A model generated the notes under the pieces. It was not told where the DNA came from, did no database searches, and worked only from the letters and a program-made list of their open reading frames with translations. 64,000 nucleotides of DNA, taken from Spirochaetia bacterium. Lineage in GTDB: Bacteria > Spirochaetota > Spirochaetia > UBA9216. Below are positions 3,661 through 13,545 of the stretch, in pieces. The stretch covers positions 1,440,001 to 1,504,000 of the forward strand of contig CAXXYH010000003.1 in the NCBI GenBank assembly GCA_963677925.2, in the 5' to 3' direction. A program made the position numbers and the translations under genes. The stretch's first letter is position 1. Every line of letters begins with the position of its first letter.

Positions 3661-4476
3661 ATGAGAGCTTTAGGCGATGAAATAGCAGTAATAACTGGAG
3701 GGACCGGTGCCATAGGGTCAAGCTTTGCTAAAGGCCTTCTGAACGCCGGGGCAAGGGTTATAATCCTTGGAAGAGGAAAAACAAAGCCGGTTGACGATGC
3801 AGTCAGAGACATTCTTTCAGACGGCAGCCTTCCCGAAGATGCAGGAAAAAGACTTTCGGGCTACACCTGTGATGTAGCTGATGAAATGGATATAAGCAGA
3901 ATTATAGACTTAATCACAAATGATGCCGGCATACCGACTATCCTTATCAATGCAGCAGGAGGAAACAAGGGCAAGGCCGATTTTGTTGATGTTGATGTGA
4001 GTATATTTAATGAAGTTGTTCAGATGAACCTTCTTGGAGGGCTCGTTGTTCCTACAAAACATATAGCCAGATTATGGATCGAGAATAAAATTCAGGGAAC
4101 CGTTATAAATATTGCATCAATGGCTTCCTACCTGCCCCTATCCGGAGTGTGGGCTTATGGAGCTTCAAAAGCAGGAGTAATGAATCTGACTGCAGGGCTT
4201 GCCAAAGAACTTGCGGAACACGGTATCAGGGTTAACGGAATTGCTCCCGGCTTCTTTGTTGGCAACCAGAACAGAGCTCTTCTGTATGAAGATTATGAAA
4301 AAGGCATTCTTACTGAAAGGGGTAAACAGATAATAGCTCATACCCCCTTCGGACGCTTTGGAAAACTCGAAGAACTAAATGGAACACTTGTATATCTCTG
4401 TGATAAGTCGCAGTCAGGATTTGTCAGCGGAGTCACAATCCCGGTCGACGGCGGATACCTGATAGATAATATCTGA
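3661..4476 (+). CDS. uxuB: SDR oxidoreductase, D-mannonate oxidoreductase/fructuronate reductase type
   Basis: TGGTGAIG, NAAGGN, YGASK, NGIAPGFF motifs typical of SDR-type UxuB; directly upstream of uxaC. Confidence 0.8.
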   Translation: MRALGDEIAVITGGTGAIGSSFAKGLLNAGARVIILGRGKTKPVDDAVRDILSDGSLPEDAGKRLSGYTCDVADEMDISRIIDLITNDAGIPTILINAAGGNKGKADFVDVDVSIFNEVVQMNLLGGLVVPTKHIARLWIENKIQGTVINIASMASYLPLSGVWAYGASKAGVMNLTAGLAKELAEHGIRVNGIAPGFFVGNQNRALLYEDYEKGILTERGKQIIAHTPFGRFGKLEELNGTLVYLCDKSQSGFVSGVTIPVDGGYLIDNI

Positions 4477-4502
4477 TAAAACTAAAAGGGAGGCTGTTAT
4501 TA

Positions 4503-5912
4503 ATGAAATTCATACACGAGGAGTTCATGCTTGAAAACACTTCTGCGTCCAGACTTTATCATGAATATGCCGAAAAACAGCCTATCATCGATTATCATTG
4601 CCACCTTGATCCGCAGGAGATTTCTGAAGATAAATCCTGGGAAAATATAACACAGGTATGGCTTTACGGTGATCATTACAAATGGCGGGCAATGCGCAGC
4701 AACGGCATTGATGAACGTTTCTGCACAGGAACTGCCTCAGATTGGGAAAAATTCAAGAGTTTTTCCGAGATAATGCCCTTCCTGCTTCGGAACCCTCTCT
4801 ATCACTGGAGCCACCTGGAACTGGCGCGAAGTTTTAAAATAGACAATCTGCTGCTCTCTGAAAAAACTGCACAGGAAGTCTGGGACAGAAGCTCAGAAAT
4901 ACTTCAGGACGGCCTGTCTGCCCGGCAATTAATGAAAAACAACAATGTACTGGCAGTCTGCACAACAGATGATCCGGCTGACAGTCTTGAACATCATATA
5001 AAGATTTCAGAATCGGAAAGCTTTACACGCGTACTGCCCACCTGGAGACCCGATAATGCACTGGCTATTGAAAAAGAATCATGGCCGGGCTATATCCGGC
5101 GTTTGTCAGAAGTTTCAGATACTGATATTTCTTCATACGATGATTTGATCGAATCCCTGAGTAAAAGACACCGGTTCTTTCATGATACCGGCTGCAGACT
5201 ATCAGATCACAGTTTGGAAACCTTCTTTATAACAGATTACAATGCAAAAGAAGTAAGGAATATTTTTACAAAAGCCGTAGCAGGAAAATCTGTAAGTATT
5301 GAAGAATCCCGGAAGTTTAAAACCGCCCTGATGCTTGAGTTCGGAAGAATGGATGCAGAAAAGGGATGGACAAAACAGATGCATATTGGAGCTCTCCGGA
5401 ACAACAGCAGCAGAATGTACAATATTCTTGGACCGGACAGCGGATTTGATTCGATAGACGATCAGCCTGTTGCACGGCCGCTTGGTCGCCTGCTTGATAT
5501 GCTTGACAGAGAAAACAGCCTGCCTAAAACCATACTGTACAATCTTAACCCTAAAGACAATGAAGTGATTGCCACCATGATTGGGAATTTTCAGGACGGC
5601 AGGATTGCCGGAAAAATTCAGTTTGGAAGCGGCTGGTGGTTTATGGATCAGAAAAACGGAATAGAGCGCCAGATTGAAGCTCTTTCACAGCTTGGCAGCT
5701 TAGGCCGTTTCGTTGGGATGCTCACTGACAGCCGTTCTTTTCTGTCATATTCCAGACACGAATATTTCCGAAGGATTCTGTGCAGCATCATAGGAAGAGA
5801 TATGGAAGCGGGAATGATTCCTGATGATTTCCAGCTTGCGGGGAAGCTGGTGGAAGATATATGCTATGGGAATGCATCAAGATACTTCGGATTCGATCTG
5901 AATCAGGATTAA
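4503..5912 (+). CDS. uxaC: Glucuronate (uronate) isomerase
   Basis: IIDYHCHL, GDHYKWRAMR, CTTDDP, GSGWWF, GMLTDSRSFLSY motifs. Confidence 0.97.
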   Translation: MKFIHEEFMLENTSASRLYHEYAEKQPIIDYHCHLDPQEISEDKSWENITQVWLYGDHYKWRAMRSNGIDERFCTGTASDWEKFKSFSEIMPFLLRNPLYHWSHLELARSFKIDNLLLSEKTAQEVWDRSSEILQDGLSARQLMKNNNVLAVCTTDDPADSLEHHIKISESESFTRVLPTWRPDNALAIEKESWPGYIRRLSEVSDTDISSYDDLIESLSKRHRFFHDTGCRLSDHSLETFFITDYNAKEVRNIFTKAVAGKSVSIEESRKFKTALMLEFGRMDAEKGWTKQMHIGALRNNSSRMYNILGPDSGFDSIDDQPVARPLGRLLDMLDRENSLPKTILYNLNPKDNEVIATMIGNFQDGRIAGKIQFGSGWWFMDQKNGIERQIEALSQLGSLGRFVGMLTDSRSFLSYSRHEYFRRILCSIIGRDMEAGMIPDDFQLAGKLVEDICYGNASRYFGFDLNQD

Positions 5913-6014
5913 AGCTGAGACCTCCTGATGCAAGTGAAAAACCCTGCATTCTCTTCCAGAGTCCTGCCATAAGGTAATTCGTTTATATGCATCAGAACCG
6001 GCCAAATATATTAT

Positions 6015-7685
6015 TTATATTTCCCTTTCATATACAGTTTTTCCTCTGAAAACAGTTTTTACAACACGTACATCTATAATCTTTTCGGGGTTGATGGAAA
6101 AAATATCTTCATCAAGAATGATAAAATCAGCAGATTTGCCTGCTTTGATCGAACCTGTCTCATCTTCAAGAAAATTTGCATAAGCAGCATTGAACGTAAA
6201 TGAGTTTATCATGGTTTTTAAATCCACTCTTTCCTCACTCCATAGCGGTTCACCATATTCCGCATCATGAGGATTACATCTAGTTATTCCGATCTGTATA
6301 GCTTCCAGAGGATTCGGATTAATTGTAACCGGAAAATCACTTGCTGATGCTACAACGATTCCCTGATCAATAAATCCAGCCATCGGATATTCATGTTCAG
6401 CCCGGTCGGCACCAAGATAGGGTACCTGAAGTTTGTAATAGTATTCATCTTTCATAAACCAGTAAGGATTGGGAATACAGACTATTCCAAGCTCACTGAT
6501 TTTTTGTATATCGTTTTCAGCGACAATCTGTAAATGTGTAATGCAATGCCTTTCATCGGTTTTGTCGGTTTCGGACAAAGCTCTTTCAAATGATTTAACT
6601 ATAAGAGCGGTTGCTGCATCGCCTATTGAATGTAAATGTACTTGAAATCCATATTCACGCGCAGACTTTATTATTGAAAAAAGCAGTTCTCCGGAATAGT
6701 ATGCCTTCCCCCTATAGCCTTCCATTCTTCCGGCAGCTTCAAGGTAAGGTTCCAGTAAAAAGGCAGTCCCGCCTTCCAATACACCATCCATGAAAATCTT
6801 TACGCTGTTAATTTTAAATTTAAGTCCCGATTCATCCCGGCCTCTTGCCTGATTTATCAGTTCAATCTGATTCAAATCACCAGCCTTATCCCATGCGTAG
6901 GCTCCCCTGAAATACATTTGCAGTTCATCACTATCTGCCAATTCCTTTATTGCCGCGACGGCATTACTTCCGGGAAACAGAACAGCATCAAAAGTTCCCG
7001 TAATCCCTAAAGAAAGTGCCATTTTCTGGTATTCAAGAAACGCATCTTTATACTGCTTTACCGAAAATTCAGGAAAATGCTTCATAACCATGTCAGCGGC
7101 AGACTCCCTGAGTGTACCTATAGGTTCACCGGAATCATCTTTTTCGATAATACCTCCGTCCGGATTTTCAGTATCCCTGCCTATCCCGGCAATCTCCAGC
7201 ATCTTTGTATTAACCCAGAGAGAGTGGTGATCTTCGGACCATAAAATAATAGGTATTTTATCTGAGATACGATCAAGAATTTTTCGGGATGGCCCCTTAT
7301 TGTCAAAAACCGTATTGGTCCAACCATTTCCGGCAATAAAGGTGGCTTCTGGATTTTCCGTCAGATACATTTCAACAGCCTCAATATACTCATCCAAAGT
7401 GTGCATTTCCGAGATATTTACGGAATTCATCAGCTCGACCATTGCTGTAGGATGACAATGAGCATCAAAAAAAGACGGAAGAACCGTATTCCCTCCAAGA
7501 TCAATGATTTCAGTTTCCTGAACGATCCAGTCAATTACACCGGAGTTATCGCCGGCATATGCATATTTACCATTTTTGACGGCTATAGAGTTTACGATTG
7601 TCTGCTCTTCATCACATGTAAAAATATTTCCATTTAGCAGAACAAATTCAGCCCCTTCCAGATTGCCAGTTTTTTTGTCTGTCAT
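6015..7685 (-). CDS. Amidohydrolase_3 (YtcJ-like) metal-dependent hydrolase
   Basis: DAHCH, KIFMDG, HSIGD, ITHLQ, SDFPV, GSIKAGKSADF motifs. Confidence 0.9.
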   Translation of the reverse strand: MTDKKTGNLEGAEFVLLNGNIFTCDEEQTIVNSIAVKNGKYAYAGDNSGVIDWIVQETEIIDLGGNTVLPSFFDAHCHPTAMVELMNSVNISEMHTLDEYIEAVEMYLTENPEATFIAGNGWTNTVFDNKGPSRKILDRISDKIPIILWSEDHHSLWVNTKMLEIAGIGRDTENPDGGIIEKDDSGEPIGTLRESAADMVMKHFPEFSVKQYKDAFLEYQKMALSLGITGTFDAVLFPGSNAVAAIKELADSDELQMYFRGAYAWDKAGDLNQIELINQARGRDESGLKFKINSVKIFMDGVLEGGTAFLLEPYLEAAGRMEGYRGKAYYSGELLFSIIKSAREYGFQVHLHSIGDAATALIVKSFERALSETDKTDERHCITHLQIVAENDIQKISELGIVCIPNPYWFMKDEYYYKLQVPYLGADRAEHEYPMAGFIDQGIVVASASDFPVTINPNPLEAIQIGITRCNPHDAEYGEPLWSEERVDLKTMINSFTFNAAYANFLEDETGSIKAGKSADFIILDEDIFSINPEKIIDVRVVKTVFRGKTVYEREI

Positions 7686-7708
7686 CGTATAAGATTCCTT
7701 ATATATCA

Positions 7709-7743
7709 GCGGTTTGCATTTACTGATGGTAAATGCAAACCGC
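7709..7743. other. Intergenic 15-bp perfect stem-loop between transporter and amidohydrolase (mRNA stabiliser or processing site)
   Basis: GCGGTTTGCATTTAC-tgatg-GTAAATGCAAACCGC with no U-tract. Confidence 0.6.
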
Positions 7744-7754
7744 CGGCAGTAATA

Positions 7755-9221
7755 TTAAAATATAAATCCTGATATCAGAAACAGGATAGCCGAAAATCCG
7801 GCAGCGATAAACCCGTAAGGCATCTGTGTAAGAGCATGTTCATAATTGTCACAGCCTGTAGCTGCCGATGTAATCAGGGTTGCATCTGAATACAGGCAGA
7901 TATGACTTCCCCATACACCTGCGGAAAGAAGAGCTCCTACGGATAAAGCAGTATTTGCACCCAGCGCCATTGACAGAGGAATTACAATCGGAAGCGCAAT
8001 AATATAAAGTGTCCAGTTTGAACCAGTTAGAAATTCAGTAATACCGAAAACAAGAAAAATAATAAACGGCATCAGCTGCGGATTCATTATCTCTTTGGCA
8101 TTGTCGATAACGAACTGAATAAATCCAATTTGATCCAGCAGACCGCCGAATGTATAGCCAAGAGCAATGATGGCAAACATGAACATCATATTTTTAAAAC
8201 CATCCACCAGAAGAACCATGAACTCCTTAATTGTAATTATCTTCTGGGGGACATACAGAAAAAAGGCAAAAACTATCCCCACAGCAGATCCCATAAAAAG
8301 ATCCACATCAAAAAAGATGGTTGCTATTATCAGCACGATTATCGGAAGGAAGAAATTAATAATCCTTGGTTTATCGGGAATATTCAGTTTCTCGTCTCCG
8401 CGAAGATCTATCTTTTCGGAGCCGGGAGGAGCAAGAACTCCTGTTGTCTGTGCCCTTTCCTCAGCTCGTTTCATCCTGCCGATCACGGGCACAACGCCAA
8501 GAATTACCAGTGGGACAATCAATACAGCAGACCAGGCATAAAAGTTATAAGGAAGGGTTTTTATAAAATAAAGCATTCCCTGACCTTCGGGTGCCCACTC
8601 GTTTGCTTCCAGCAGATTTGCAGCAAATGCTGCCCAGGTAGATATAGGGATGAGTACGGAAACCGGAGCCGCGGTTGAATCTACAATATATGAAAGCATT
8701 TCTCTGGATACTTTGTGCTTATCTGTTGCTTTAGGCATGCTTGATCCTATAGTCAGTGCATTAAGATAGTCATCGAGAAAAACTACTACCCCCAGCAGCC
8801 ATGTCCAGAGAAGAACGCCCTTTCTTGTTTTTGCTTTTTTCGCAATCAAATTACCGAATGCGATTGCACCGCCCGATCTTTCAATAACAAGAACCAGTGC
8901 CGACATAAATCCGCAGACCAGGATTACCCAGACAAAGTCTTCATTCATCAGCGTGCCGAAGAACTGACCTACGTATTCAGTAAAGAATGCTCCCTTGAAA
9001 ATCATAAAACAGGCAAATAAACTGGCAATTATCAGACCAAGAATAATTTCATTAGTTAATAGAATAAATGCCATAACAAAGACAGGAGGCACTACACTAA
9101 ACCAGCCAAGATTATCACCTGACGGATTCAGGATAAAAAATAAAACAAGAATTACAGCCGTAGCAATCAACAATAATATTTTTAATAACTTTTTATTTTC
9201 GGAAATCTGTTTACCCAACAT
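7755..9221 (-). CDS. NhaC-family Na+/H+ antiporter-like transporter (amino acid/amine transporter subfamily)
   Basis: About 12 TM helices; FLDDYLNAL, SREMLSYIVDSTAAP, GSHICLYSDAT, HALTQMPY motifs. Confidence 0.88.
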   Translation of the reverse strand: MLGKQISENKKLLKILLLIATAVILVLFFILNPSGDNLGWFSVVPPVFVMAFILLTNEIILGLIIASLFACFMIFKGAFFTEYVGQFFGTLMNEDFVWVILVCGFMSALVLVIERSGGAIAFGNLIAKKAKTRKGVLLWTWLLGVVVFLDDYLNALTIGSSMPKATDKHKVSREMLSYIVDSTAAPVSVLIPISTWAAFAANLLEANEWAPEGQGMLYFIKTLPYNFYAWSAVLIVPLVILGVVPVIGRMKRAEERAQTTGVLAPPGSEKIDLRGDEKLNIPDKPRIINFFLPIIVLIIATIFFDVDLFMGSAVGIVFAFFLYVPQKIITIKEFMVLLVDGFKNMMFMFAIIALGYTFGGLLDQIGFIQFVIDNAKEIMNPQLMPFIIFLVFGITEFLTGSNWTLYIIALPIVIPLSMALGANTALSVGALLSAGVWGSHICLYSDATLITSAATGCDNYEHALTQMPYGFIAAGFSAILFLISGFIF

Positions 9222-9289
9222 CTCTTATTCTCCTTTACAATATTTTATTTACAGTCTTCAGGGTATATCTCTATCACCTCCTTTAGAGC

Positions 9290-9330
9290 AAAAAAAAGAC
9301 CGATGCAAAATACAAATTTTGCATCGGTCT
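9290..9330 (-). terminator. Intrinsic terminator inside the 5' leader of the NhaC gene (attenuator)
   Basis: Minus strand AGACCGATGCAAAAT-ttgt-ATTTTGCATCGGTCT (15-bp perfect stem) followed by 7 U, about 70 nt upstream of the start codon. Confidence 0.88.
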
Positions 9331-9369
9331 ATTAAAAGCTATCAGCTATCTCTTTTAATCAATTCCGAT
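9323..9369 (-). promoter_or_regulatory. Candidate antiterminator hairpin overlapping the terminator 5' arm
   Basis: Minus strand ATCGG-aattg-ATTAAAAG-13 nt-CTTTTAAT-aga-CCGAT; the final agaCCGAT is also the start of the terminator stem. Confidence 0.6.
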
Positions 9370-9451
9370 AATAACGAGTAATAATTTTACTGCGTCCGAT
9401 TCTCCTGAAGCACGGAAACATCCCGTCAGCAGAAGCTCGTCGAACCCTGAA

Positions 9452-9480
9452 AGTATATCATACCTTCGGAAAACGGACAA
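9452..9480 (-). promoter_or_regulatory. sigma70 promoter (extended -10) for the NhaC-amidohydrolase leader
   Basis: Minus strand TTGTCC-17 nt-TATACT with TG at the extended -10 position. Confidence 0.65.
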
Positions 9481-9545
9481 GAATTATCCGAAGGCAGTTA
9501 AATCTGGTACTATTAAATAAAAAAAATATATAAAATCTTTACTCT

Positions 9546-10295
9546 TCAGCCTGTTAAGTATGTGAGAGTCAAAAAATCAGTATCCGCAACCGGATTAACC
9601 TCAATATCTTTTAATTTTACTTTCATTCCGATGTGTCTGGAAACAAGTTCTTCTATCTCCTGCTTGAGGATGTTATAGAATATCATTCTGTTCTGCTCTA
9701 CAATAGAGGCGTTTCGGCCTGAACGGAGAAGGGTTTTTTCAAAAACTGTCTGGACATTCAGACATCTAATTTCCAGCTGTTCCTGACCAATAAAAACGAC
9801 AATATCCCTGGGACCTTTTCCTGAATGCTTTTTTATTAAATTCATGAATTGAAATTTTATGGTTTTCTCTATTTCCTTCTTCTCCACTCCATTCAAATGA
9901 AGAACATTCCCTGTATTTTCCAATACAGATTCAGCAAAACGTTCAAGAGCCTCTTCAAGTTCCATCAATTCAATCGGTTTTATAATATATTTACTTATTC
10001 CAATATCAACGGTTTTTATAATGGAAGGAGCATCACTTAGCGCCGAAGTAATTATGACAGGATTTTGAAAGCCCGATTTCCTTACTTCTTCTATAAACTC
10101 AATCCCTCCCATATCAGGGATTACCAAATCTGTTAAAATAATATCAGGATTATATTTAAAGAACTTATCCAAAGCTTCCTTACCATTTGTTGCTGTAATA
10201 ACTTTGGTGAATCTTCTCTTTAAAAACACTGTCAGAGGTTCAAGAGTATCAACTTCATCCTCTATATATAAAATTCTCAAGTTATAATGCATCAT
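9546..10295 (-). CDS. Response regulator: REC domain plus C-terminal DUF2294/MpsC-like domain, no DNA-binding HTH
   Basis: REC motifs (YIEDE, ILTD phosphoacceptor, ITSA, KP). C-terminus KKHSGKGPRDIVVFI...TVFEKTL...VEQNR resembles the GKGP signature of DUF2294/MpsC. Start probably ATG 10295 or 10292, overlapping the kinase stop. Confidence 0.8.
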   Translation of the reverse strand: MMHYNLRILYIEDEVDTLEPLTVFLKRRFTKVITATNGKEALDKFFKYNPDIILTDLVIPDMGGIEFIEEVRKSGFQNPVIITSALSDAPSIIKTVDIGISKYIIKPIELMELEEALERFAESVLENTGNVLHLNGVEKKEIEKTIKFQFMNLIKKHSGKGPRDIVVFIGQEQLEIRCLNVQTVFEKTLLRSGRNASIVEQNRMIFYNILKQEIEELVSRHIGMKVKLKDIEVNPVADTDFLTLTYLTG

Positions 10296-12444
10296 GGTCT
10301 TTATCACTCTTATATACCGGTAAAATTATTCGGCACAATACACCTGTATTTACATTCTCAAAAGAAATACTTCCGTTTAAATGTTCTTCCACTATTATCC
10401 GTGACATATACAATCCAATTCCGGTACCGCCTCCGCCCGTTTTGGTGGTAAAGTATGGTGTGAATATATTTTCCAATATTTCTGATGGAATTCCAGGTCC
10501 GTTGTTCATTACCAAAACAGTAACCTTGGCGCCGCATTCAATTTCAATTTTTATATTCCTCTTATTCCTTGGGTTTTCCAGAAGTGCATCCTTCGAATTA
10601 TAAAGAATATTCGATATAACCTGAGAAAACTCATTGGAGCAACCCCAAACTTCTGCATCAGATTTCATATCGATTGAGATCTTTATATTTTCTATATTAA
10701 AGCTGTCTTCAATTAATTCTTTAGTAAAGAGAATATTCTTGTATACAGAGAAAATCTCTTTCTCGGCAGAAGGGCTAAGAAAATTTCTAAAGTTATCAAT
10801 TGTTTGAGACATCCTGATAATGATTTTCCTTGATTTGTCTATAACTTTACTAAGATAAGCCCCGTCAAAATTTCCATAAAAGTAAGAATCTTCAAGTTCC
10901 GATAATATAATCGAAAGACTGTTTAATGGCTGCCGCCACTGATGTGCTATATTGCCTATCATCTGTCCCAGCTTTGCCTGCCGTGACTGATAGATCATTA
11001 CAGCATCCCTCTGCCTGTTCAACTTCAATTCTTCGGAAACAAGATCTTCAAGCTTCAAATTCAACTGTTCAAGTTTATCAACAGATTCCTTCAGATTCTC
11101 ATCAACCAGTTGTTTCTCGCCGGTAATTCTCTCAATTGCCTCTGCAGCCTGAACGGCTGCATTTTGTGTCCTGTCGAATATTTTTTCAAGAAGAATATCC
11201 TTTGCTCCGATTCCGCCGGTAATTTCGAATTCTTCGATCATGTCGCTGATGATCGTCTGCATTGCGAACACTGAACGAAAAAATGCACCTAAATCATCAT
11301 CCCTGTTTCTAAGCGTTTCAGGAAAGGCATGAGTAAAATCACCTCTCTCAATAATCTTCAACTGCTGGGCTGCACTATCTATGGTTTTTGACAGTTTGTT
11401 TGAGAACAGATAGGCAGTCGAAATTGCAAGAATTATGCTTAACAGTGTAAAGAAGATAATGTATGCTGCAAGCTTGTCTATCGGTCTGTAAATTTCCGCT
11501 CTTGGGGGAATAATTACAAGAATCCAGTCATTAGACAGTTTACAGTAGCCCAGAATCTCATCTTTATCTTCACCCCTGTATTCTACTACTCCGGACCTGG
11601 AATTGAGGTTTGATGTTTCAAGGAATTTAAACATACCGTTTTTAAACTGATTTATCTCAACAGTCTCTGAGGAGTCGGGATCAACAAGCACTTTGCTGCC
11701 GTCTTCATTTAATAGAAATGCATAACCGGTTTTAAAAACTTCCATATTCTGAATAGTTTTTAATATATACTCAAAGTTTATATCGATTCCAACAACACCG
11801 ACAACAGAATCTTCAATTATTACTGGCACTACGTATGAAATAATTTTTATATCAAGCCCTATTTCAGAATAAGGTTCAAACCATATCGGCCGTTTGGAAT
11901 TCATTGTTTCATAAAGATATTTCATACCCTCATTTTCAGTATCCATAAAATAGTTCTTGGAAGGATAGTCTGAGTACAGATCCGGATTATCTATCGTGTA
12001 CCTGCTAATAAGCTCTGTAGTTATTTTATACAGATTCCCGTCACCCGTAATATCCGCAAACCAGATTTCTTCGGGCTCTGCAGTCATATACGGATTAAAA
12101 GTAATATAGACGCCTTCAGGTTCTTTGTAGTTGGAGAGCATATTCTCCAATATTTTCTCCAGTTCCATTTTATATCCGATAAGATAATCAGGATCTACTA
12201 TAAACTCGTTCATATTGAAACCTGATTTTACTATTGCCTGCAGCGCATCTACATAACTTTCAGTTCTTTTGAGGTTCTGGCTGAACTCATTTGCATAACT
12301 TCTGGCCATATATACAAGATTGTTTGATGATTCATGTTTTATATAGCCGGCACTCTGGCGCAGACTAAATCCTCCTACCAGAGTAGAAGTCAGGACAGCA
12401 CATCCTACGATTATACTCATTATCCTGGAACTGACTTTTTTCAC
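10282..12444 (-). CDS. Sensor histidine kinase (TM-dCache-TM-HAMP-HisKA-HATPase)
   Basis: Two TM segments, Cache motif WFEPY...GID, H-box IAHQWRQPLN, N-box NILYNSKDA, NNGPGI, FTPYFTTK, GTGIGL. Confidence 0.93.
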   Translation of the reverse strand: MKKVSSRIMSIIVGCAVLTSTLVGGFSLRQSAGYIKHESSNNLVYMARSYANEFSQNLKRTESYVDALQAIVKSGFNMNEFIVDPDYLIGYKMELEKILENMLSNYKEPEGVYITFNPYMTAEPEEIWFADITGDGNLYKITTELISRYTIDNPDLYSDYPSKNYFMDTENEGMKYLYETMNSKRPIWFEPYSEIGLDIKIISYVVPVIIEDSVVGVVGIDINFEYILKTIQNMEVFKTGYAFLLNEDGSKVLVDPDSSETVEINQFKNGMFKFLETSNLNSRSGVVEYRGEDKDEILGYCKLSNDWILVIIPPRAEIYRPIDKLAAYIIFFTLLSIILAISTAYLFSNKLSKTIDSAAQQLKIIERGDFTHAFPETLRNRDDDLGAFFRSVFAMQTIISDMIEEFEITGGIGAKDILLEKIFDRTQNAAVQAAEAIERITGEKQLVDENLKESVDKLEQLNLKLEDLVSEELKLNRQRDAVMIYQSRQAKLGQMIGNIAHQWRQPLNSLSIILSELEDSYFYGNFDGAYLSKVIDKSRKIIIRMSQTIDNFRNFLSPSAEKEIFSVYKNILFTKELIEDSFNIENIKISIDMKSDAEVWGCSNEFSQVISNILYNSKDALLENPRNKRNIKIEIECGAKVTVLVMNNGPGIPSEILENIFTPYFTTKTGGGGTGIGLYMSRIIVEEHLNGSISFENVNTGVLCRIILPVYKSDKDHDAL

Positions 12445-12579
12445 ACTCTATCCCCGGTGGCTGCAGAATATGTTCCCTACATCGATATATAGCATGTTAC
12501 TATTATTAAGAAAAACTTTCGGAATGTCTGCATACATAAACTCTTCCTAGAGAAATATCAGAATCAAATTCATTATATA

Positions 12580-13545
12580 TTACTGATTGAAGATAGCGGA
12601 TATCCAGACATCAGCCAGAACCGGCCATAGAGCAACTTCTTTATTCATTCTTCTATTGTATAATTCAAAATTCAAGTTTTTAAAATATTCAACGATTTCA
12701 AAAGCCTTAGTACTGAGTGCAATCTCATTACGCTCGACTGCTTCTAATACCTTTTTAATCTGTGCTAGCGTATAATCATCACCCCAGCGTCCTGCCGCCC
12801 AGTCTTCATCAGCAAGCGATAACCCATGTTCTCCCTCGGAAAAAATATGAAGCGCCTGTTTAACTCCTGCTCTCCTGCAGGCCTCTGAAAACATAATACT
12901 GTTTTCAGGCGGAACAAGCTCATCCGCGGCTGTATGCCATAAAAAGCATGGCGGAGTATTTTGGGTTACATGTTTTTCCAGAGACATGTAATCAAGCATC
13001 TCAGGATCTGGATCTTCACCAAGCAGCGCAGTAAATGATTCAGCATGCCCGAGCTTTCCGCTGCTGATAACGGGATAGCAGAGTACAGAAGCATCAGGCC
13101 GGTTTGAAAAACTGCTGTAAGCCTCTTCAGTATCAGCAATATCATCAAAGTGAACAGATAAACCTGCGCACAGATGCCCTCCAGCCGAGAATCCGCAGAG
13201 AATTACTCCTGTATGATCAATTTTAAACTTGTCCGCATTCAGCCTGAGATACCTTACAGCCCTTGAGATATCCTTCAGAGGCTGCATTTTCAGAGGTGAT
13301 GTCAGAAGAGGGTTTGTTGTATAGCTTAGAACAAAGCAGTTATATCCCATTGAATAGAATTTAAGAGCCGTTATTTCCGCTTCAGTGGGAGAAACTGACA
13401 TATAGCCGCCGCCGGGAACGACCAGCATGCAGAGACGCTTTGACTCACCTTCATGAATATAGCTGACAATATTAGGTACAAAACCGAATGCAGCGGGATA
13501 ATTATATTCAGATTCAGCCCAAAGCCTGTAAACACCGGTTTCCAT
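12580..13545 (-). CDS. Alpha/beta hydrolase (acetyl/carboxyl esterase, BD-FAE-like)
   Basis: PGGGY oxyanion motif, GFSAGG nucleophile, D(ELV) and HGL catalytic residues. Confidence 0.88.
   Translation of the reverse strand: METGVYRLWAESEYNYPAAFGFVPNIVSYIHEGESKRLCMLVVPGGGYMSVSPTEAEITALKFYSMGYNCFVLSYTTNPLLTSPLKMQPLKDISRAVRYLRLNADKFKIDHTGVILCGFSAGGHLCAGLSVHFDDIADTEEAYSSFSNRPDASVLCYPVISSGKLGHAESFTALLGEDPDPEMLDYMSLEKHVTQNTPPCFLWHTAADELVPPENSIMFSEACRRAGVKQALHIFSEGEHGLSLADEDWAAGRWGDDYTLAQIKKVLEAVERNEIALSTKAFEIVEYFKNLNFELYNRRMNKEVALWPVLADVWISAIFNQ

Follow-up and report, generated by a model that had tools for sequence, protein, structure and literature searches.

The stretch of DNA analysed here, 64,000 nucleotides (nt) from a Spirochaetia bacterium (contig CAXXYH010000003.1 of GenBank assembly GCA_963677925.2) and called the window below, carries on its minus strand, from position 12444 down to 6015, four genes arranged head to tail: a sensor histidine kinase, a response regulator and, beyond a 324-nt leader, a transporter and an amidohydrolase. 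The regulator joins a receiver (REC) domain to a single output domain of the MpsC/DUF2294 family (PF10057), and the leader contains a conserved RNA element with two mutually exclusive folds, one of which is an intrinsic terminator. Our best reading, to which we give a probability of roughly 0.65, is that the phosphorylated REC-MpsC regulator stabilises an antiterminator in the leader, presumably by binding the RNA. Antitermination of this kind had been proposed in the original prediction, which was made from the letters of the window; it now gains computational support from a conserved, covarying leader and from the association of that leader in cis with REC-MpsC genes, the contact with RNA itself being what we infer. 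The comparative evidence suggests that response regulators acting on RNA comprise a second class, as yet undescribed.

A covarying leader RNA with two exclusive folds

The element recurs in leaders with the same design: a short 5′ strand, a hairpin here called P1, two to three bases, a long terminator hairpin and a U-run. The earlier claim that the leader in the window has a strong terminator overlapped by an alternative pairing proved accurate, in that the terminator has 15 base pairs (bp) and the UAUCGG/CCGAUG pairing (9370-9365 with 9327-9322) belongs to the minimum-energy fold once the 3′ arm of the terminator is withheld. P1, which lies between the two antiterminator strands, had no place in that description. 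The motif region of 83 nt folds at -27.4 kcal/mol (z = -5.99), and none of 200 shuffled sequences was as good.

A covariance model of P1 plus terminator (R1) was built from 20 leaders, and a second model (R2) represents the P1 type of hairpin. In 941 kilobases (kb) of fetched loci, R1 matched 27 REC-MpsC loci with expectation values (E) of no more than 1.6e-5, and it gave no match at E <= 1 in 28 fetched loci whose regulators are without MpsC; with filters switched off, the best score in eight control loci without MpsC (99 kb) was 17.6 bits. Rfam 15 yielded no match at gathering score in 11 related loci, nothing near gathering score in the leaders of loci L034 and L016, and only chance-level matches in window positions 5800-12800.

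Covariation was assessed first for the alignment fitted to R1. Across P1 and terminator, 92.8% of cells are paired and 17 of 20 pairs show compensatory changes; no shuffle out of 500 was as good, and slid controls gave at most 53%. Corresponding figures for the terminator are 96% of cells and 11 of 13 pairs, and RNAalifold predicts this hairpin independently. Because a fitted alignment leans towards its model, P1 was retested on a plain MAFFT alignment, in which its outer stem (P1a) is paired in 90.5% and its inner stem (P1b) in 95.1% of cells, 11 of 12 pairs are compensatory and, again, 0 of 500 shuffles were as good. The covariation of both stems makes P1 a bipartite hairpin with a small internal loop, a shape that we read in about 24 of 27 leaders when they were folded freely to minimum energy. 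The apical loop is read as 3-9 nt, with a hexaloop in only three of the 25 leaders that have the bipartite shape.

The antiterminator columns provide an unbiased test, since the 5′ strand lies outside the structure of the model. Its core of four pairs holds in 23-26 of 27 rows, with exchanges of the kinds CG/UA/UG, UA/CG and AU/GC, and the helix is fully paired in 22 of the 27 (10 distinct sequence types). By clade, the pairing strands are AUCGG/CCGAU (the version in the window), CCGG/CCGG, CAUUGG/CCAAUG, UUGAC/GUCAG, GUAGA/UCUAC and AUGGA/UCCAU. When the register is left free, the duplex of each leader with its own partner averages -6.69 kcal/mol, compared with -3.57 ± 0.38 kcal/mol for shuffled sequences (0 of 500 as low); strands swapped between loci average -3.06 kcal/mol, and the own partner is the better one in 23 of 27 cases. 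Twelve leaders from outside the seed replicate this result (-6.63 against -3.64 ± 0.58 kcal/mol; 0 of 500). The UUGAC strand was also considered as a possible -35 box and rejected: other clades have AUCGG, CCGG, CAUUGG or AUGGA at that place, and a transcript starting there would be without its antiterminator strand.

The two folds compete in a consistent manner. With the 3′ arm of the terminator withheld, 26 of 27 leaders form the antiterminator helix and 25 of 27 form P1a in the minimum-energy fold; with the arm present, the terminator state is the more stable by 16.6 kcal/mol on average. Since the terminator wins when its arm is complete, termination should be the default and a factor should be needed to keep the alternative pairing in place.

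DNA binding is the usual mode of action of response regulators, and this one might accordingly be a DNA-binding activator or repressor with a novel domain, the terminator being controlled separately by a metabolite riboswitch or some other factor. The outer stem of P1 is indeed an inverted repeat at the DNA level, and 18 of 27 leaders have promoter-like boxes at a distance of 64-100 nt before the element. However, the frequent G-U pairs of P1 are in keeping with pairing in RNA rather than with a palindrome in DNA, and both P1 and the antiterminator helix vary through compensatory exchanges and G-U substitutions, as expected of RNA and not of an operator. The promoter-like boxes precede the element, and several loci have a -35 box that starts no more than about 10 nt from the regulator stop codon, too close for an activator site to fit in before it; promoter candidates are, besides, often near-consensus (at least 10 of 12 positions in 15 of 27). 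Together with the confinement of the element essentially to the cis neighbourhood of REC-MpsC genes, described below, these points make regulation through DNA unlikely.

No second P1-like site was found in the leaders by R2. Inspection by eye shows that leaders of the 2HCT/citDEF type (L016, L020, L021, L028, L043, L049 and L072) carry an extra 5′ hairpin some 45-95 nt after the regulator stop codon, composed of a P1-like outer stem and an inner stem followed by AUAG, to which R2 gave no score; this hairpin could be a second binding site. In L021 (6896-6930), P1 is kept (28 bits with R2) and no terminator stands behind it; this leader may be decayed or constitutively open.

Association of the element with REC-MpsC genes and catabolic operons

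The element is tied in cis almost exclusively to REC-MpsC genes. The genome that contains the window (5.04 megabases) has a single MpsC gene, that of the window regulator, and one strong R1 match, and the two are adjacent. Among 151 genomes of the same class, R1 matches occur in four: in three of these, and in no other genome of the sample, there is a REC-sized, low-scoring MpsC gene, in each case adjacent to the match, and the fourth has a weak match (42.8 bits) and is without MpsC. The 12 genomes of the class with stand-alone MpsC gave no R1 match. Five further genomes contain 12 REC-sized MpsC genes, 10 of them with a match in cis, and four stand-alone genes, none of them with one. A conserved leader stem overlapping a terminator, which the original prediction had suggested looking for beside REC-fused and stand-alone genes alike, was thus found, with covarying pairs, at REC-MpsC loci and did not materialise at stand-alone ones.

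A set of 151 genomes from a clostridial order gave 39 match rows, three of them opposite-strand echoes, and hence 36 distinct matches. Twenty-three lie directly behind a REC-sized MpsC gene and nine on the same strand 10.3-12.3 kb upstream, so that 32 of the 36 are in cis to such a gene; the remaining four are unlinked (two are on contigs other than that of the MpsC gene, one of these at a contig end). Viewed from the side of the genes, which were classed by an open frame of at least 245 amino acids (aa) with REC presumed from this length, 32 of 56 were matched in the filtered search. An unfiltered search covered 21 of the remaining 24 and found matches in 3 of 3 and 14 of 18, all 100-400 nt downstream on the same strand, which brings the total to 49 of 56 (32 + 3 + 14) REC-sized genes with a match in cis. 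These additional matches are weaker (24-44 bits) and belong to variant clades, with the same fold design and new pairs such as AUGGA/UCCAU. Genomes with up to four paralogous systems occur in this sample.

The element goes with the operon under control and is not attached to the 3′ end of the regulator gene. It stands upstream of an amidohydrolase gene that precedes the kinase in L003 and L007, and operons such as citC-citD-citE-citF-citX-tctC-tctB-tctA-kinase-regulator begin with it in the distal cases. L168 has two copies (L168:442-531 and L168:3467-3558), 3 kb apart in one citrate-fermentation cluster, of which one precedes citDEF and the other tctCBA with the oxaloacetate decarboxylase, kinase and regulator genes; tandem elements so spaced are present in two other genomes also. 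In L033 the element faces a divergently transcribed gene. Weak variants on the strand opposite to the regulator were noted at L033:3916-3982 (-), before a 729-aa gene, and at L039:8989-9054 (-), before an M28 peptidase gene.

From the upstream, tandem and divergent positions it follows that the element is not merely the terminator of the kinase-regulator operon. An ordinary terminator, alike between loci through shared descent, would suit the 23 of 36 sampled cases in which the element lies directly behind the regulator gene and read-through would stop there, but it is already contradicted by the cases in which the element stands 6-12 kb upstream at the head of an operon, occurs twice or faces a divergent gene. 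It would, moreover, need neither P1 nor a covarying upstream strand, and the REC-MpsC regulators are only 35-53% identical, the shape of the element being kept nonetheless. We therefore regard this explanation as very improbable.

The genes under control vary and include citrate lyase with a 2HCT transporter, xanthine permease with molybdenum dehydrogenase, M28 peptidases, an amino-acid permease, a sigma-54 activator, and NhaC with amidohydrolase. The kinase and the regulator are the only genes common to the loci. One RNA design placed before unrelated pathways, always with its own kinase and MpsC regulator and confined to REC-MpsC loci, argues against a metabolite riboswitch, for which no single metabolite would be sensible before citrate, purine, peptidase and amino-acid genes, and argues for the regulator as the trans-acting partner.

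The regulator, its relatives and the locus in the window

As had been claimed, the regulator is without a helix-turn-helix domain, winged or otherwise: Pfam at E <= 0.01 finds Response_reg and MpsC and no further family, and in particular no ANTAR, CAT or PRD domain. The identity proposed for the C-terminal domain also stands, with 57.3 bits for PF10057 against a cut-off of 23 and profile positions 2-103 of 111 covered. The protein belongs with the response regulators by its Response_reg match, its conserved acidic pocket, Asp, Ser and Lys residues, and its overlap with the kinase gene. Across 14 aligned REC-MpsC proteins, D17, D60, K110 and the GxGP motif of the MpsC domain (G163, G165 and P166) are invariant, and K164 and S88 are nearly so. 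We take D17, D60, S88 and K110 to be, respectively, the acidic pocket, the phospho-acceptor Asp, the Thr/Ser and the Lys of a receiver, and on this basis the receiver looks functional.

Searches of the literature on DUF2294, PF10057 and COG5609, and on MpsC combined with response regulators, gave nothing relevant, in agreement with the earlier statement that MpsC has no established molecular function. NCBIfam holds no equivalog for the output domain, and for one homologue (P0006) the nearest structures in the ESM Atlas are MpsC clusters only. Pfam MpsC scores separate the stand-alone genes (about 113-135 bits) from the REC-fused form (37-76 bits). A protein of 270 aa (P0117) has two tandem MpsC domains. 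P0091 (1326 aa) was considered as an MpsC fusion and rejected, being an ankyrin-repeat protein with a spurious domain match; other MpsC matches of odd length are truncated REC-MpsC fragments or one tandem MpsC.

The regulator family is small. A word-based search returned 14 REC+MpsC proteins, the closest at 53% identity, and a full HMMER scan with the domain returned 96 cluster representatives, mostly of about 250 aa. A scan of species-representative genomes provided the best 80 loci of 211 relatives. The match spans both REC and MpsC in 52 of the 80, nearly all from anaerobic Bacillota, and the kinase lies directly upstream of the regulator in most loci. A gap of 125-570 nt and then a same-strand gene follow the regulator in 30 of the 40 loci whose next called gene is on the same strand; this gene usually encodes a transporter (2HCT in 7 of 40, xanthine/uracil permease in 7 of 40) and more rarely an amino-acid permease, NhaC, MFS or another protein. 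Kinase sensors vary across loci, with dCache_1 with or without PAS, or an NMT1-like domain plus PAS. L147, L148 and L149 form a variant clade in which the genes at the kinase position are short (about 377-381 aa), the one tested giving no Pfam match; this clade controls a 197-220-aa protein with a faint HTH_38 match and, in L148, a methyl-accepting chemotaxis protein with a dCache sensor as well.

In the window (Table 1), the assignment of the kinase as a Cache sensor is confirmed by Pfam matches to dCache_1 (E 4.4e-12) and HATPase_c (E 1.9e-18), with HisKA, at 24.5 bits, slightly below the cut-off of 26.9. Kinases 45-49% identical to it over 98-99% of the length lie upstream of the regulator in L002, L003 and L007. 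The NhaC transporter and the amidohydrolase directly downstream of the regulator were likewise correctly identified. The ATG of the transporter gene is preceded by a GGAG-type ribosome site, and an NhaC protein 49% identical to it follows the element in L038; amidohydrolase homologues (43-45% identity) stand directly behind the element, upstream of the kinase, in L003 and L007.

Table 1. Positions of genes, domains and leader RNA features in the window
Feature	Position	Strand	Evidence or remark
Sensor histidine kinase, 720 aa	10282..12444	-	dCache_1 sensor, HisKA-like region, HATPase_c (open reading frame and Pfam)
Response regulator, 253 aa, REC + MpsC	9546..10307	-	Overlaps kinase gene by 26 nt
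Receiver (REC) domain, residues 12-121	9945..10274	-	Pfam Response_reg, E 1.6e-21
MpsC/DUF2294 domain (PF10057), residues 143-244, only output domain	9576..9881	-	57.3 bits, E 1.9e-15
Leader, 324 nt	9545-9222	-	Gap between regulator and transporter genes
Candidate sigma-70-like promoter, TTGTCC-17-TATACT, TG-extended	9452..9480	-	9/12 match
5′ leader hairpin P0, containing CUGAC	9397..9439	-	Predicted fold
Whole conserved leader element	9289..9371	-	Covariance model R1, 64.7 bits, E 1.8e-8
Antiterminator 5′ strand UAUCGG	9365..9370	-	Pairs with CCGAUG, 9327-9322
Hairpin P1: 8-bp outer stem P1a, small internal loop, short inner stem P1b	9331..9359	-	Proposed protein recognition site
Intrinsic terminator hairpin, 15 bp	9297..9330	-	5′ arm contains antiterminator 3′ strand, 9322-9327
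Terminator U-tract	9289..9296	-	Follows 15-bp hairpin
NhaC-family transporter, 488 aa, first regulated gene	7755..9221	-	Pfam Na_H_antiporter, E 1.1e-28
Amidohydro_3 family amidohydrolase, 556 aa, second regulated gene	6015..7685	-	Pfam, E 1.2e-80

The sigma70 promoter attributed to the operon fared less uniformly. In its favour, the candidate aligns with a TTGACA-17-TGnTAnAnT-like block in the closest relatives (L007, L003 and L150), and its -10 box ends 80 nt before the motif, compared with the 64-100 nt seen among the leaders; against it, the match is 9 of 12, and promoter matches are not enriched in the region (17 found, 22 ± 4.6 expected). Between the promoter-like site and the element, a CUGAC(A/G)G block and its hairpin are kept, as judged by eye, in the leaders of L002, L007, L003 and L150. 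A 10-bp hairpin without a U-tract (9462-9497, minus strand), right after the regulator stop codon, overlaps the candidate -35 box.

A gene for a BD-FAE/alpha-beta hydrolase (Pfam) lies just upstream of the kinase (12580-13545, minus strand), and on the other flank (3661-5912, plus strand) are an SDR-like open reading frame and another of 469 aa, both of which come from the list of open reading frames. No mobile-element gene was seen near the module in the window.

Horizontal acquisition of the module is suggested by several comparisons. Its G+C content is 0.36-0.38, or 0.36-0.41 over positions 6000-12500, compared with 0.40-0.44 in the flanks; the window regulator nests among Bacillota sequences with 100/98 support; and REC-sized MpsC genes are present in only three of the 151 genomes of the class. 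Synteny brought no confirmation: in a congeneric genome without the system the two flanks are on different contigs, and an insertion is not demonstrable.

Proposed mechanism and comparison with known systems

An element tied to REC-MpsC genes that nevertheless travels with the regulated operon indicates the logic of ANTAR- or RAT-type antitermination. In the mechanism that we propose, the dCache kinase would sense an extracellular substrate and phosphorylate D60 of the REC-MpsC regulator. The antiterminator 5′ strand would be transcribed first, then P1 and then the 5′ arm of the terminator, and these early segments are predicted to form one long irregular hairpin of antiterminator helix and P1, with about -11 to -13 kcal/mol. 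Without the regulator, the emerging 3′ arm would allow the stronger terminator (about -27 to -30 kcal/mol) to displace the short antiterminator helix, and transcription would stop before the transporter gene. The activated regulator, on the other hand, would bind P1 and the junction through MpsC and clamp the antiterminator helix closed; with the terminator thus blocked, RNA polymerase would read into the NhaC and amidohydrolase genes. P1 is the likeliest, if putative, recognition element.

The closest functional parallel is offered by the ANTAR regulators EutV, AmiR and NasT. As there, a receiver is fused to an output domain that does not bind DNA, the intrinsic terminator of the target leader has its 5′ arm captured in an alternative fold, and one regulator can serve several attenuators in a cluster (two, here, in L168; the eut operon is described with four T-loops in the passages of PMC8934654 that deal with it). 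According to those passages, an ANTAR target is a pair of hairpins, each with a hexaloop whose first base is A and whose fourth is G, and the second hairpin overlaps the terminator (PMC8934654). The element described here differs: its one hairpin is bipartite, has an apical loop read as 3-9 nt and is enclosed by a long-range helix. The window regulator, for its part, has REC and MpsC and is without the three-helix ANTAR domain. The system would thus work like ANTAR, with a receiver-controlled factor acting on exclusive terminator and antiterminator folds, without being a member of that group.

In the BglG/SacY/LicT systems, a protein-stabilised stem-loop of about 30 nt (RAT) partly overlaps the terminator, according to the part of a 2025 review concerned with them (PMC12591593). 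Substrate-specific induction of transport and catabolic operons is common to these systems and to the one described here, which differs in having no CAT or PRD domains, in control by a histidine kinase rather than by the phosphotransferase system and in the strand that competes with the terminator, which is here a short stretch of its own located 5′ of the hairpin. The HutP protein of Bacillus subtilis is described in the same source as a small alpha/beta RNA-binding antiterminator of a catabolic operon (PMC12591593). It has no sequence relation to the window regulator by Pfam, and is ligand-activated and without a receiver domain. The RNA site of HutP consists of triplet repeats.

Systems of the CitA/CitB type would be alike in physiology. 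Many REC-MpsC relatives flank genes for citrate lyase, oxaloacetate decarboxylase and citrate or tricarboxylate transporters, and their sensors are likewise periplasmic domains of the Cache type; the same physiological role would be filled. Cultivable strains of Geosporobacter, Alkaliphilus and Wukongibacter are examples of carriers of a citrate-type system. Regulators of the CitB type are DNA-binding activators, whereas the regulators here carry MpsC and are accompanied by a leader attenuator. The MpsC protein of Staphylococcus aureus, founding member of PF10057, is in the same Pfam family as the output domain in the window. It is described, where the source treats it, as a stand-alone protein of about 120 aa encoded next to mpsAB and dispensable for MpsAB function (PMC6689103). 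Stand-alone genes of this type differ in being without the leader element.

The regulator might also relieve termination indirectly, its MpsC domain docking on RNA polymerase, NusA/NusG or another host factor, with P1 serving as a pause or loading site. This would sit well with the output domain itself, for which no similarity was found either to a known RNA-binding domain in Pfam or to a solved structure in the Protein Data Bank, by sequence or by profile, and which is only mildly basic (mean net charge +2.4 over 14 proteins, an uninformative value); an association in cis, besides, says that regulator and leader work together and does not imply contact. Yet the action of a host factor leaves unexplained why P1 and its internal loop are conserved beside REC-MpsC genes only, and why the leader variants differ from one regulator clade to another. 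Where a genome has as many as four paralogous systems, a determinant of specificity is needed, which direct contact between protein and RNA supplies. Indirect action seems to us improbable on these grounds, and binding of the leader by the regulator remains the preferred reading.

A number of observations nevertheless weigh against that reading, beginning with the isolation of the MpsC domain and its modest charge just mentioned. RNAalifold used alone recovers the terminator and not P1, and P1 is thermodynamically weak (mean z -1.8), the example in the window especially (z -0.52; 23.5 bits and E 0.41 with R2); a weak hairpin is as expected of a protein-stabilised site, yet it is also a caveat. 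The candidate promoter in the window is the weakest item and unproven. In the clostridial sample, REC was assigned from gene length, matches of 24-31 bits are near background (one unrelated terminator scored 27.1 bits), and 7 of 56 genes, like 9 of 53 fetched loci, have no element, several of them being cut by contig ends. Many sampled genomes are also the sources of seed loci and their sequences are related, so the shuffle statistics overstate independence. The neighbourhoods of 12 stand-alone MpsC genes are variable, with no pattern and no P1-like element, which limits the claim for now to the REC-fused subfamily. Deletion of mpsC in S. aureus gave no phenotype in the experiments described in the corresponding part of PMC6689103. 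Taken with the missing element at stand-alone genes, this suggests that a role in RNA binding may not be general to the domain.

The wider proposition is that REC-fused MpsC is an unrecognised RNA-binding antiterminator domain which, with its cognate RNA element, forms a second class of RNA-acting response regulators after ANTAR, controls citrate, purine, peptide and amino-acid catabolic operons across anaerobic Bacillota and has spread horizontally to the lineage of the window; we hold this to be slightly better than an even bet. By extension, stand-alone MpsC proteins, which are widespread and include those of S. aureus and B. subtilis, may be RNA-binding regulators. The sections of the 2025 review that treat RNA-binding antiterminators cover CAT, ANTAR and HutP only, with no mention of the MpsC family, and name ANTAR as the RNA-binding output domain of two-component regulators (PMC12591593). 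A second output domain, unrelated to ANTAR and doing the same job, would therefore be of interest. If the reading is correct, it would provide the first molecular function for the MpsC/DUF2294 family and contribute an RNA family not represented in Rfam 15. It would also account for the induction of citrate fermentation and several further catabolic operons in many anaerobic Bacillota, and would offer for engineering a compact protein-RNA switch, about 85 nt long, in which Cache sensors can be interchanged.

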